Origin: Escherichia coli
Lineage (GTDB): Bacteria; Pseudomonadota; Gammaproteobacteria; Enterobacterales; Enterobacteriaceae
Strand: one strand, 5' to 3'
DNA length: 64,000 nt
Assembly: GCF_016026235.1 (NCBI RefSeq)
Contig: NZ_CP065613.1
The notes below the pieces were generated by a model that was given only the letters and a program-made list of their open reading frames with translations, was not told the origin of the DNA and did no database searches. Every line of letters begins with the position of its first letter. Position 1 is the first letter of the stretch. Both the position numbers and the translations under genes were made by a program. Shown piece after piece: positions 17,101 through 51,091 of this stretch.

Positions 17101-17919
17101 TTAAGCAGCCATCTGATGATATTTTTCCCTGAAGGCTGCCGGGGAGATATTCCCCAGACGAGAGTGACGACGCTGACGATTGTAGAAAATCTCAATGTAT
17201 TCCCGTATTACTGAGATGGCTTCATCCCGGTTATTAAAACGATAGTGGCTCAGGCTCTCATTTTTCAGCGTTCCCCAGAAGCTTTCCATCGGAGCGTTGT
17301 CGTAACAGTTACCTTTACGCGACATTGATGTTTTCAGACCAAACTGCTCCTGTATGACCCGGTAATCGTATGCGCAGTACTGTGAACCTCGATCAGAGTG
17401 GTGGATTAGCCCGGCAGGTGGGCGCTGGCTCCTGAGCGCCATAAACAGGGCTTTACCTGTCAGCTCTTTTGTCATGCGCTCTCCCATGGCGTAGCCGACA
17501 ATTTCGCACGTATAAACATCTTTGATGCCAGCGAGGTACAACCATCCCTCCTGTGTGGCAACATACGTCAGGTCCGCCACCCAGACCTGATTTGGTGCTG
17601 TAGGAGCGAACGTCTGGTTCAGCAGATTTGGCGCAACTGGCAGATTGTGGTTCGGGTTCGTAGTCGCTCTGAACTTGCGTTTCTGCTTACAGCGTAGCCT
17701 TAGCTCCTTACGAAGACGTGCCAGTCGGTCACGACCAACGATGATGCCATTCTCTGCCAGCTCCGTCTGGAGCCGCCGGGTTCCATATGTTTCGCGAGTG
17801 CGGATATGTGCCACCTTAATCTCCAGTTTTAGCCGCTCATCACTTTGTTTTCTGTCTGAGGGTTCATGCTGTACCCAGTTGTAATAACCGCTCCTGGATA
17901 CACCAAATACCTGACACAT
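17101..17919 (-). CDS. IS3-family transposase OrfB (DDE integrase-like catalytic domain)
   Basis: 272 aa with HSDRGSQY and later E; the -1 frame joins orfA to orfB through an A7 run (about 17995-18005). Confidence 0.9.
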   Translation of the reverse strand: MCQVFGVSRSGYYNWVQHEPSDRKQSDERLKLEIKVAHIRTRETYGTRRLQTELAENGIIVGRDRLARLRKELRLRCKQKRKFRATTNPNHNLPVAPNLLNQTFAPTAPNQVWVADLTYVATQEGWLYLAGIKDVYTCEIVGYAMGERMTKELTGKALFMALRSQRPPAGLIHHSDRGSQYCAYDYRVIQEQFGLKTSMSRKGNCYDNAPMESFWGTLKNESLSHYRFNNRDEAISVIREYIEIFYNRQRRHSRLGNISPAAFREKYHQMAA

Positions 17920-36606: not shown

Positions 36607-37860
36607 GTGAGCCGTACTACAACTGTTGATGGCGCTCCGGCAAGCGACACTGACAAGCAAAGCATTTCTCAGCCAAATCAATTTATTAAACGCGGTACGC
36701 CGCAATTTATGCGCGTCACCCTGGCGCTGTTCTCTGCCGGACTGGCAACATTTGCACTTCTCTATTGTGTGCAGCCTATCCTTCCGGTGCTTTCGCAGGA
36801 GTTTGGCTTAACGCCCGCGAACAGTAGTATTTCACTGTCCATTTCCACGGCGATGTTGGCTATTGGTTTGCTGTTTACTGGCCCCCTATCCGATGCCATT
36901 GGTCGCAAACCAGTGATGGTCACGGCGCTACTGTTGGCCTCCATTTGTACGTTACTTTCGACAATGATGACCAGCTGGCACGGCATTTTGATTATGCGCG
37001 CCTTGATTGGGCTTTCGTTAAGTGGCGTGGCAGCTGTTGGCATGACTTATCTTAGCGAGGAAATCCACCCCAGTTTCGTGGCCTTTTCGATGGGGTTGTA
37101 TATCAGCGGCAACTCAATTGGCGGCATGAGCGGACGCTTAATTAGCGGTGTCTTCACGGACTTTTTCAACTGGCGAATTGCTCTGGCGGCTATCGGTTGT
37201 TTCGCGTTAGCCTCGGCGTTGATGTTCTGGAAAATCCTCCCGGAATCACGCCATTTTCGCCCGACTTCGCTGCGACCTAAGTCGTTGTTTATCAACTTTC
37301 GTCTGCACTGGCGTGACCGGGGATTACCGTTATTGTTCGCAGAAGGCTTTTTGCTGATGGGGTCGTTCGTCACGCTGTTTAATTACATCGGCTATCGGTT
37401 GATGCTCTCCCCCTGGCATGTCAGTCAGGCCGTGGTTGGCTTATTATCGCTGGCTTATTTGACCGGTACATGGAGCTCCCCCAAAGCCGGAACCATGACC
37501 ACCCGCTATGGGCGTGGTCCAGTGATGTTGTTTTCGACGGGGGTTATGCTGTTTGGTTTACTGATGACCTTATTCAGCTCGCTGTGGCTGATCTTTGCCG
37601 GAATGTTACTCTTCTCAGCCGGATTCTTCGCAGCCCACTCAGTAGCCAGCAGCTGGATCGGCCCCCGCGCAAAACGCGCTAAAGGCCAGGCCTCCTCGCT
37701 GTATCTGTTCAGTTACTATCTGGGGTCGAGTATTGCCGGGACGCTGGGTGGTGTTTTCTGGCATAACTATGGCTGGAACGGCGTCGGCGCATTTATTGCT
37801 CTGATGCTGGTCATTGCTCTGCTGGTCGGGACGCGTTTGCATCGTCGTCTGCACGCCTGA
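36607..37860 (+). CDS. ynfM: MFS transporter YnfM
   Basis: 417 aa, 12 predicted transmembrane helices; divergent from ynfL. Confidence 0.85.
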   Translation: MSRTTTVDGAPASDTDKQSISQPNQFIKRGTPQFMRVTLALFSAGLATFALLYCVQPILPVLSQEFGLTPANSSISLSISTAMLAIGLLFTGPLSDAIGRKPVMVTALLLASICTLLSTMMTSWHGILIMRALIGLSLSGVAAVGMTYLSEEIHPSFVAFSMGLYISGNSIGGMSGRLISGVFTDFFNWRIALAAIGCFALASALMFWKILPESRHFRPTSLRPKSLFINFRLHWRDRGLPLLFAEGFLLMGSFVTLFNYIGYRLMLSPWHVSQAVVGLLSLAYLTGTWSSPKAGTMTTRYGRGPVMLFSTGVMLFGLLMTLFSSLWLIFAGMLLFSAGFFAAHSVASSWIGPRAKRAKGQASSLYLFSYYLGSSIAGTLGGVFWHNYGWNGVGAFIALMLVIALLVGTRLHRRLHA

Positions 37861-38166
37861 AAAATAAGTCCGGACTGCGGTAAATACCCGTCCGGACTTA
37901 TTGCCTGCTCAAACCAACGTTAATAGCCATCCTAAAATAGACGAAGCGCCAGCCAATTCCCGCAGCGCGTCTAGCGTCATCAGGATTATAAGTACCCAAA
38001 TAAACGGATTCATTTTGCTGTGTGTCATTTATTACTGATGCGCAGTTATTCTACCGCTTTGTAAGTAGTAAAATAGTTAACCCGATCAAGACTACTATTA
38101 TTGGTAGCTAAATTTCCCTTAAGTCACAATACGTTATTATCAACGCTGTAATTTATTCAGCGTTTG

Positions 38167-38180
38167 TACATATCGTTACA
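38167..38180 (+). promoter_or_regulatory. RstA box-like site (TACATATCGTTACA) in the asr promoter region
   Basis: Matches the published RstA box pattern TACA-T-N-T-N-GTTACA, about 105 bp upstream of the asr start. Confidence 0.5.
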
Positions 38181-38283
38181 CGCTGAAACCAACCACTCAC
38201 GGAAGTCTGCCATTCCCAGGGATATAGTTATTTCAACGGCCCCGCAGTGGGGTTAAATGAAAAAACAAATTGAGGGTATGACA

Positions 38284-38592
38284 ATGAAAAAAGTATTAGC
38301 TCTGGTTGTTGCCGCTGCTATGGGTCTGTCTTCTGCCGCCTTTGCTGCAGAGACTGCGACCACACCTGCTCCGACTGCGACGACCACCAAAGCAGCGCCG
38401 GCGAAAACTACACATCATAAAAAACAGCATAAAGCAGCACCTGCCCAGAAAGCGCAGGCGGCTAAAAAGCATCATAAAAATACGAAAGCTGAACAGAAAG
38501 CCCCTGAACAAAAAGCGCAGGCAGCGAAGAAACACGCCGGGAAACACAGCCATCAGCAACCGGCAAAACCTGCTGCACAACCCGCAGCGTAA
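38284..38592 (+). CDS. asr: Acid shock protein Asr
   Basis: 102 aa, signal peptide then Lys/His/Ala/Gln-rich low-complexity sequence. Confidence 0.9.
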
Positions 38593-38684
38593 GTTTTCAA
38601 CAGTAATGCTGGCGCGCCCCCTCGCGCCTGAAAATTACGGTGCTAAGCGGGTAACGTTTAGCACCGCCTTTAGCGGAGGGTAGT

Positions 38685-38768
38685 ATGGTGGGCCGTTATC
38701 GCTTTGAGTTCATTCTTATCATCCTTATTTTATGCGCACTGATTGCCGCCCGTTTTTATCTTTCCTGA
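38685..38768 (+). CDS. ydgU: Small hydrophobic protein YdgU (27 aa)
   Basis: Translation MVGRYRFEFILIILILCALIAARFYLS; short single transmembrane helix; conserved position after asr. Confidence 0.5.
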   Translation: MVGRYRFEFILIILILCALIAARFYLS

Positions 38769-38867
38769 CTGTAGTTATCTGATTTTACTCCCACTTTCAT
38801 CCCGTCCCGTCTATAGTATTTATGAGGGTTTGCTTTTAATAATCATAATTACCCACCAGAGTGTGAT

Positions 38868-39689
38868 ATGCGTACAACCATTGCTGTAGTGTTGGGTGCA
38901 ATTAGTTTGACGTCTGCTTTTGTGTTTGCAGATAAACCAGACGTTGCCAAATCGGCAAACGATGAGGTCAGCACCCTGTTTTTTGGTCATGATGATCGTG
39001 TGCCAGTGAATGACACGACCCAATCACCGTGGGATGCGGTTGGGCAACTGGAAACGGCCAGCGGCAATTTATGTACGGCGACGCTGATTGCACCCAATCT
39101 GGCATTAACGGCAGGACACTGTTTATTGACACCTCCAAAGGGTAAAGCCGATAAAGCAGTGGCGCTGCGTTTTGTGTCAAATAAAGGTCTTTGGCGCTAT
39201 GACATCCACGACATAGAAGGCCGCGTTGATCCGACACTGGGAAAGCGGTTAAAAGCAGATGGGGATGGTTGGATTGTACCTCCCGCAGCCGCGCCGTGGG
39301 ACTTCGGATTGATTGTGCTACGTAATCCCCCTTCTGGCATTACGCCGTTGCTGTTATTTGAGGGAGATAAAGCCGCGCTTACCGCCGCATTAAAAGCGGC
39401 AGGTCGTAAAGTGACTCAGGCAGGATACCCTGAAGATCATCTCGATACGTTGTACAGTCATCAAAACTGTGAAGTGACTGGCTGGGCGCAAACGTCGGTG
39501 ATGTCACATCAGTGCGATACCTTGCCGGGTGACAGCGGTTCGCCTCTGATGTTGCATACCGATGACGGCTGGCAATTAATTGGGGTGCAAAGTTCGGCTC
39601 CTGCCGCGAAAGATCGCTGGCGCGCCGATAACCGGGCCATTTCTGTTACCGGTTTTCGCGACAAGCTGGATCAACTGTCGCAAAAATAA
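38868..39689 (+). CDS. ydgD: Secreted trypsin-like serine peptidase YdgD
   Basis: 273 aa; signal peptide; TAGHC and GDSGSP active-site motifs. Confidence 0.85.
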
Positions 39690-48938: not shown

Positions 48939-49066
48939 CTTTTTACCTTAACACTTCCATAACAAGTCATCAGTAGAATACCTGATGAAAACTTGTTTAG
49001 AAACGATTGATAGTAAGTAAAAACAGCGCGGTGTATTGTGACGTTTTTATATCTACCGTGAATGTT

Positions 49067-49786
49067 ATGAACACTATCGTATTTGTGGAAGATGATGCGG
49101 AAGTCGGTTCACTGATTGCCGCGTACCTGGCAAAACATGATATGCAGGTTACCGTAGAGCCGCGCGGCGACCAGGCCGAAAAAACCATTTTGCGAGAAAA
49201 TCCGGATTTGGTGTTACTCGACATCATGCTACCAGGCAAGGACGGCATGACCATTTGTCGTGATTTACGCGCAAATTGGTCCGGACCGATTGTTCTTCTA
49301 ACCTCTCTCGATAGCGATATGAACCACATCCTGGCACTGGAAATGGGTGCCTGCGACTATATTCTCAAAACGACGCCCCCTGCTGTTTTGTTAGCGCGTT
49401 TACGTTTGCATTTGCGTCAGAATGAGCAAGCCACGCTTACCAAAGGTCTTCAGGAAACGTCACTGACTCCCTACAAAGCCCTGCATTTCGGCACGTTGAC
49501 CATCGATCCTATCAACCGCGTAGTCACCCTGGCTAACACTGAAATCTCGCTCTCGACAGCTGATTTCGAATTATTGTGGGAATTAGCAACCCATGCCGGG
49601 CAAATCATGGACCGCGATGCATTGCTGAAAAATTTACGCGGCGTCAGTTATGACGGACTGGATCGTAGCGTGGACGTGGCTATTTCGCGGTTAAGAAAAA
49701 AACTGCTCGATAACGCCGCAGAACCTTATCGCATTAAAACTGTGCGTAACAAAGGCTATCTTTTTGCGCCTCATGCATGGGAATAA
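49067..49786 (+). CDS. rstA: OmpR-family response regulator RstA
   Basis: 239 aa from MNTIVFVEDDAEVGSL; receiver plus winged-helix domains. Confidence 0.9.
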   Translation: MNTIVFVEDDAEVGSLIAAYLAKHDMQVTVEPRGDQAEKTILRENPDLVLLDIMLPGKDGMTICRDLRANWSGPIVLLTSLDSDMNHILALEMGACDYILKTTPPAVLLARLRLHLRQNEQATLTKGLQETSLTPYKALHFGTLTIDPINRVVTLANTEISLSTADFELLWELATHAGQIMDRDALLKNLRGVSYDGLDRSVDVAISRLRKKLLDNAAEPYRIKTVRNKGYLFAPHAWE

Positions 49787-49789
49787 GCG

Positions 49790-51091
49790 ATGAAAAAACT
49801 GTTTATCCAGTTTTACCTGTTATTGTTTGTCTGCTTCCTTGTGATGTCTCTGCTGGTTGGGCTGGTGTACAAATTTACCGCCGAACGCGCGGGCAAACAG
49901 TCGCTGGATGATTTGATGAACAGTTCGCTGTATCTGATGCGCAGCGAATTGCGTGAGATCCCCCCACACGACTGGGGTAAGACGCTGAAAGAGATGGATT
50001 TAAATCTCTCTTTCGATCTGCGAGTCGAGCCACTGAGTAAATACCATCTTGATGATATTTCCATGCACCGACTGCGTGGCGGCGAAATTGTCGCCCTGGA
50101 CGATCAGTACACGTTTTTGCAGCGTATCCCGCGCAGCCACTACGTGCTGGCAGTTGGTCCTGTTCCTTATCTTTATTATCTCCATCAGATGCGATTGCTG
50201 GATATCGCCCTGATCGCTTTTATTGCTATTTCCCTCGCCTTTCCGGTGTTTATCTGGATGCGTCCGCACTGGCAGGATATGTTAAAACTGGAAGCAGCGG
50301 CGCAACGATTTGGCGATGGGCATCTCAATGAACGTATCCACTTTGATGAGGGTTCGAGCTTTGAACGACTTGGTATCGCATTTAACCAGATGGCGGACAA
50401 TATCAACGCCTTGATTGCCAGCAAAAAACAGCTTATTGACGGTATCGCTCACGAACTGCGAACACCGTTAGTGCGCCTGCGTTATCGACTGGAGATGAGC
50501 GATAACCTGAGCGCCGCCGAATCCCAGGCGTTGAATCGTGATATCAGTCAACTTGAAGCTTTAATTGAAGAGCTGCTGACTTATGCCCGACTCGATCACC
50601 CACAAAACGAGCTTCATCTTAGCGAACCAGACCTGCCGTTGTGGCTGTCAACGCATCTGGCAGATATTCAGGCAGTAACGCCCGATAAAACGGTACGGAT
50701 AAAAACGCTCATGCAAGGCCATTATGCGGCGTTGGATATGCGCTTAATGGAGCGCGTGCTGGATAATTTGCTCAATAATGCCCTGCGCTACTGCCATTCA
50801 ACGGTTGAAACCAGCCTGCTACTGTCGGGGAATAGAGCGACATTAATTGTTGAGGATGATGGCCCAGGGATTGCCCCAGAAAACCGCGAACATATCTTTG
50901 AACCTTTTGTTCGCCTCGATCCCAGCCGGGATCGCTCAACCGGCGGCTGCGGGCTGGGGCTGGCAATTGTCCACTCTATAGCACTGGCAATGGGCGGTAC
51001 GGTTAATTGTGACACCAGCGAACTGGGTGGTGCCCGCTTCTCGTTTAGCTGGCCGTTGTGGCATAACATCCCGCAATTTACCTCTGCTTGA
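49790..51091 (+). CDS. rstB: Sensor histidine kinase RstB
   Basis: 433 aa; HAMP, H-box IAHELRTPL and ATPase motifs. Confidence 0.9.
   Translation: MKKLFIQFYLLLFVCFLVMSLLVGLVYKFTAERAGKQSLDDLMNSSLYLMRSELREIPPHDWGKTLKEMDLNLSFDLRVEPLSKYHLDDISMHRLRGGEIVALDDQYTFLQRIPRSHYVLAVGPVPYLYYLHQMRLLDIALIAFIAISLAFPVFIWMRPHWQDMLKLEAAAQRFGDGHLNERIHFDEGSSFERLGIAFNQMADNINALIASKKQLIDGIAHELRTPLVRLRYRLEMSDNLSAAESQALNRDISQLEALIEELLTYARLDHPQNELHLSEPDLPLWLSTHLADIQAVTPDKTVRIKTLMQGHYAALDMRLMERVLDNLLNNALRYCHSTVETSLLLSGNRATLIVEDDGPGIAPENREHIFEPFVRLDPSRDRSTGGCGLGLAIVHSIALAMGGTVNCDTSELGGARFSFSWPLWHNIPQFTSA

Follow-up and report, generated by a model that had tools for sequence, protein, structure and literature searches.

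[quoted passage not shown]

The 14-mer TACATATCGTTACA upstream of asr is, with a probability that we put at about 95%, the RstA box already characterised in the asr-samT promoter, which depends on sigma70. It was studied within a 64,000-nucleotide stretch of Escherichia coli DNA, referred to here as the window. The element is already known and tells nothing new about E. coli. It falls inside the interval published for the RstA site of asr, -77 to -55 (PMC9026648); the preliminary description had proposed a comparison with published RstA footprint data, and the literature found contains no report that places the RstA site of asr elsewhere. The features discussed below are collected in Table 1.

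The 14-mer matches the published consensus TACATNTNGTTACA exactly and is built of two TACA half-sites in tandem with 10-bp phasing, TACAtatcgtTACA. It had been described beforehand as a sequence of the RstA box pattern about 105 bp upstream of asr; the 3' end of the box lies 104 nt from the asr ATG (38284). When both strands of the 64-kb window were searched with the consensus, the asr box was the only exact match, compared with a mean of 0.01 matches in dinucleotide-preserving shuffles (n = 100, with a match in 1 of the 100). With up to two mismatches allowed, the sole further match was 17870-17883, which has two mismatches to the consensus; a match of this quality is at chance level, and the site was rejected as a second RstA box. 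An inverted repeat flanking the asr box, CAGCGT (38159-38164) and ACGCTG (38180-38185), was likewise dismissed as incidental, its upstream arm being unconserved in orthologues. The identical 14-mer is present in K-12 MG1655 (NC_000913.3, 1671259-1671272), also 104 nt before the asr ATG, and a 30-mer around the box had a single occurrence in 5405 of 5426 complete E. coli genomes.

However, the fit to the consensus is circular. The RstA consensus, with 12 specified bases, was built from two sites only. The asr site is one of these two founding sites, so its perfect match provides no independent evidence. In the csgD promoter of MG1655 the site, read on the strand of csgD, is TACATTTAGTTACA; this sequence is identical to the asr box at 12 of 14 bases, differing at positions 6 and 8 only, and the intersection of the asr and csgD sites is exactly TACATNTNGTTACA.

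[quoted passage not shown] In that paper, the PhoB box of the promoter overlaps the -35 element, and a 9-bp spacer, TCCCAGGGA in the wild type, separates the PhoB box from the -10 element. Placing the spacer in the window fixes the positions of the Pho box, the -10 element, the transcription start and the published RstA interval. The -77 to -55 interval and +1 rest on this secondary source plus geometric consistency. Relative to the inferred +1, the RstA box spans -68 to -55, with its centre at -61.5, and forms the 3' end of the published interval. It is on the strand of asr, with the Pho box, the -10 element and the transcription start all downstream of it. A generic sigma70 promoter scan of 37850-38900 returned no promoter, a result that is uninformative since the asr promoter has no -35 hexamer. 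The lack of a -35 hexamer fits what is expected of an activator-dependent promoter. Within the transcribed leader, a stem-loop is predicted that may act as a stabilising 5' hairpin. Its sequence is nearly invariant in orthologues, leaving no variation for a covariation test, and the folding energy of the leader is unexceptional (z = -0.23 for a 61-nt stretch, not significant).

Table 1. Positions in the window of the asr promoter elements and of the genes of the RstBA-asr-samT circuit, with the basis of each assignment.
Feature	Position	Strand	Basis
RstA box TACATATCGTTACA	38167..38180	+	sequence read; exact match to TACATNTNGTTACA
Published RstA box interval, -77..-55	38158..38180	+	PMC9026648 coordinates mapped to the window
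Invariant block CGCTGAAACCAACCACTCACGGA, -54..-32, 23 bp	38181..38203	+	phylogenetic footprint
PhoB (Pho) box CTCACGGAAGTCTGCCAT, -39..-22	38196..38213	+	PMC9026648 coordinates mapped to the window
Wild-type spacer TCCCAGGGA	38214-38222	+	PMC9026648 sequence mapped to the window
-10 hexamer TATAGT	38223..38228	+	directly after the 9-bp spacer TCCCAGGGA
Inferred asr transcription start, A preceded by C	38235	+	deduced from published box coordinates
Predicted stem-loop in asr leader, GGCCCC-GCAGU-GGGGUU, +4..+20	38238..38254	+	predicted fold, -9 kcal/mol
asr, acid-shock periplasmic protein, 102 aa	38284..38592	+	NCBIfam Asr equivalog, 99 bits vs cutoff 50; RefSeq
ydgU/samT, 27-aa membrane peptide	38685..38768	+	NCBIfam small_YdgU, 70 bits
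rstA, OmpR/PhoB-family response regulator	49067..49786	+	NCBIfam RstA equivalog, 484 bits vs cutoff 330
rstB, cognate sensor histidine kinase	49790..51091	+	NCBIfam RstB equivalog, 830 bits vs cutoff 478

Binding of RstA to this promoter is documented in the literature. In electrophoretic mobility shift assays (EMSA), RstA shifted the asr promoter, and the shift was abolished when the box was deleted or scrambled (PMC11135836). An EMSA shift of Pasr by RstA was also reported in EHEC (PMC6824119), and purified RstA bound Pasr in DRaCALA (PMC13425233). According to the last of these studies (2026), purified RstA and sigma70 holoenzyme suffice for Pasr activation in vitro, and acid induction of Pasr in vivo requires rstA, which bears out the agreement with known acid-inducible control of asr that had been claimed for the box. 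The same study describes asr-ydgU as an RstA-dependent operon and renames YdgU as SamT; SamT inhibits RstB, a negative feedback, and Asr gives positive feedback. The crystal structure 4NHJ shows two DNA-binding domains of the near-identical K. pneumoniae RstA in a head-to-tail arrangement on the RstA box of asr; the alpha3 helix of each domain is in the DNA major groove at one TACA half-site (PMC4117788). Going by the Klebsiella data, the upstream half-site would be the more critical of the two. That paper restates the RstA consensus and the recognition of tandem TACA and, citing Ogasawara 2007, places asr under the control of a PhoQP-RstBA relay that responds to acid and low Mg2+.

We performed an ortholog scan with one genome per species, anchored on the N-terminus of Asr rather than on the promoter. 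The scan yielded 120 asr loci, which come from about 100 Enterobacterales species, the sampled genera including Citrobacter, Enterobacter, Klebsiella, Raoultella, Salmonella, Serratia, Rahnella, Ewingella and Hafnia. The best match to the consensus differed from it at 0-2 positions in all 117 loci having at least 200 nt of upstream sequence, and was in every case on the asr strand and at a fixed position, -117 to -122 from the ATG. The reverse-strand control in the same loci mostly gave 4-5 mismatches. For the phylogenetic footprint, 118 distinct asr promoters were aligned with MAFFT. TACA and GTTACA were invariant or almost so. TAC of the first half-site and TTAC of the second were each found in 118/118 sequences, the TACA/TTAC cores as a whole were conserved at 116-118/118, and the final A of the half-sites was kept in 116/118 (first) and 111/118 (second). 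Only -71 to -55 of the published -77 to -55 interval was conserved among orthologues, and there was no conservation upstream of -74. The -10 element was invariant at T-12, A-11 and T-7 (118/118 each); A+1 was found in all 118 sequences and C-1 in 111. Unlike the consensus fit, this conservation of the box is independent support for the RstA site.

The footprint also bears on the consensus itself. The T at consensus position 7 is unconserved, the 118 orthologous promoters having A in 27, C in 59, G in 7 and T in 25 (window 38171-38174). The published consensus is therefore over-specified, and the orthologues support TACA-W-N3-GTTACA. Moreover, the alignment contained no indels between -74 and -7. 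This fixed, indel-free spacing in all orthologues suggests that the geometry between the RstA box and the -10 element may be required.

For each of the proteins encoded by asr, ydgU, rstA and rstB, the score against its NCBIfam equivalog model exceeded the curated cutoff. The RstA of the window has a winged-helix DNA-binding domain (residues 132-239) that aligns to the 4NHJ and 2MLK chains (E = 3e-56), and the stretch DRSVDVAISRLRKKLLDN is identical between them. The preliminary description placed rstA-rstB about 11 kb downstream; both genes are indeed on the same strand as the box, 10.9 kb from it. Since RstA acts in trans, however, this proximity is no evidence of regulation. A functional connection exists all the same, as the second gene of the operon encodes SamT, which inhibits RstB (PMC13425233). 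The box had further been proposed as an internal check on the annotation, and the window does hold the circuit complete and intact, with RstBA, the promoter of asr-samT and the feedback peptide SamT. The window comes from a non-K-12 strain, and its positions 37900-38700 (801 bases) are 100% identical to E. coli ECC-1470, in which the PGAP annotation gives the gene order ynfM, small ORF, asr, ydgU, ydgD ... rstA, rstB, tus. Among orthologous loci, a ydgU-like ORF lies 3' of asr in at least 56 of 100.

Several side observations concern the surroundings of these genes. In frame with asr, another ATG 27 nt ahead of the annotated start (38257-38283) gives a mechanical ORF of 111 aa; the annotated start at 38284 fits a signal peptide and a GAGG Shine-Dalgarno sequence at 38271-38274. 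On the minus strand, an ORF of 39 aa at 37909-38028, between ynfM and asr and divergent from asr, belongs to the KPN_01571 family (NCBIfam NF033695, 63 bits), and the sequence between this ORF and Pasr -74 is unconserved. About 60-85 bp upstream of the rstA ATG there are two overlapping PhoP-box-like sequences, 48983-48999 and 48994-49010, with two mismatches each. PhoP-box matches of this quality occur in the window at chance frequency (16 found versus 13.3 expected) and were rejected as evidence for the control of rstA; the pair would be consistent with the reported PhoP control of rstA.

Directly 3' of the RstA box lies a block, -54 to -32, that is as invariant as the box, most of its positions being identical in 110-118 of the 118 sequences. 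Thus, the 14-mer alone does not explain all of the conserved promoter information. The 5' half of the proposed Pho box falls within the block, and the literature found gives no binding partner for the block beyond this overlap. Invariant AC dinucleotides recur in phase at -67/-66, -57/-56, -47/-46 and -36/-35, and the csgD site likewise has a third phased repeat. By eye, the -48 to -34 stretch matches about half of the specified positions of the RstA consensus; a second RstA site in this stretch would be speculative. The block could be a low-affinity second site bridging to RNA polymerase, occupied by an RstA dimer or by a different member of the family. As a side observation, many genera (Rahnella, Raoultella, Cedecea, Hafnia, Ewingella and some Enterobacter) have two asr copies, each with its own RstA-type box plus the conserved -54 to -32 block; in our locus set the pairs include L008/L019, L041/L042, L046/L047, L055/L056, L069/L070 and L079/L080.

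The 3' half of the Pho box, CTGCCAT (38207-38213), is similar to CTGTCAT in the window and E. albertii alone; all other sequences sampled have 2-7 mismatches of 7 there, mostly 4-5. Together with the invariant block, this pattern suggests a longer activator target and an Escherichia-specific PhoB half-site, and control of asr by PhoB may be confined to Escherichia. In a joint reading, which we offer tentatively and consider rather unlikely, the 14-mer would be the distal half of a larger activator target and the classical Pho box a recent Escherichia overlay, the latter because the 3' half CTG(C/T)CAT is absent in every other sampled genus. If this is true, RstA control of asr is ancestral and PhoB control lineage-specific. 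The -54 to -32 block and the Escherichia Pho half-site bear on the engineering of the asr promoter, which is widely used and acid-inducible.

A different regulator of the OmpR family, OmpR for instance, might share the 14-mer with RstA or be its main user, and asr would then integrate more than RstA at this sequence. The csgD promoter offers a precedent: one motif serves both RstA and OmpR there, in a box that is only 2 of 14 positions off the asr box, and Pasr has GTTACA and TGAAAC elements that we take to resemble OmpR-type half-sites. However, binding of OmpR to Pasr, or control of Pasr by OmpR, is not reported in the literature found, acid induction of Pasr depends on rstA, and purified RstA alone activates the promoter in vitro. 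Use by OmpR, which we regard as improbable, would supplement the explanation by RstA rather than replace it. We give considerably less credence to the view that the 14-mer is itself a Pho box and part of a PhoB-dependent control of asr. The gene was first described under phoBR control (Suziedeliene 1999, through citing papers), and PhoB and RstA are members of the same family that both recognise tandem direct repeats. A Pho box is defined by two 7-bp repeats similar to CTGTCAT, phased at 11 bp and placed about 10 bp before the -10 element. The 14-mer looks different: its arrangement is TACA-N6-TACA with 10-bp phasing, and 42 bp separate it from the -10 element downstream. As published, the Pho box of this promoter is another sequence, at -39 to -22 (38196-38213), and RstA binding is abolished on deletion of the RstA box. 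Because half-site sequence, phasing and position all differ and the Pho box is mapped elsewhere, the PhoB-site reading is excluded for practical purposes.

A functionless chance match is the least probable of these alternatives, to a degree that makes it negligible. The site is short, with 12 specified bases, and the consensus comes from just two sites, which would favour coincidence; against this, the expectation is 0.01 matches per window, the 118 distinct promoters agree in position, strand and core bases of the box while being unconserved upstream of -74, and binding and deletion data are available in the literature. Conservation and the published binding data together exclude chance, and we conclude that the 14-mer is very probably the RstA box of asr.

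With the 14-mer taken as this RstA box, the following mechanism may be proposed. In the circuit as reported, acid or low Mg2+ acts through PhoQP and then RstBA on asr-samT. Phosphorylation of RstA would lead to its dimerisation, and the dimer would be placed at -61.5, a class-I-like position. As in the K. pneumoniae structure, two RstA domains would be bound head-to-tail on one face of the DNA, with one recognition helix per TACA half-site. From this position, the dimer may recruit or stabilise RNA polymerase at a promoter without a -35 hexamer, and the fixed spacing to the -10 element would be needed for its contact with the polymerase. As reported, SamT then inhibits RstB, a negative feedback on a kinase encoded 11 kb away, and Asr exerts positive feedback. 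PhoB acts separately, at -39 to -22, in low phosphate.

The RstA box of K-12 asr (Ogasawara 2007, J Bacteriol 189:4791, through its citation by PMC4117788 and PMC9026648) is the same element, in an identical promoter. The asr box of K. pneumoniae (PDB 4NHJ; PMC4117788) belongs to an orthologous promoter with an orthologous regulator and shows head-to-tail binding at tandem half-sites. Its repeat is an imperfect TACA/TACT, whereas the E. coli box has two perfect TACA; the TACA/TACT variant was also found in the Raoultella loci L042 and L120. In the csgD box, TACA and GTTACA stand in tandem as they do in the asr box, and both boxes are oriented alike with respect to their gene. At csgD, however, the box overlaps a site for OmpR and papers differ on the sign of control by RstA, whereas all reports on asr describe RstA as an activator. 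Pho boxes, one of which is in the asr promoter itself, resemble the RstA box in having a regulator of the same family, a direct repeat and activation without a -35 hexamer, but differ from it in half-site, phasing and position, the Pho box lying over the -35 region at -39 to -22 and the RstA box at -68 to -55.
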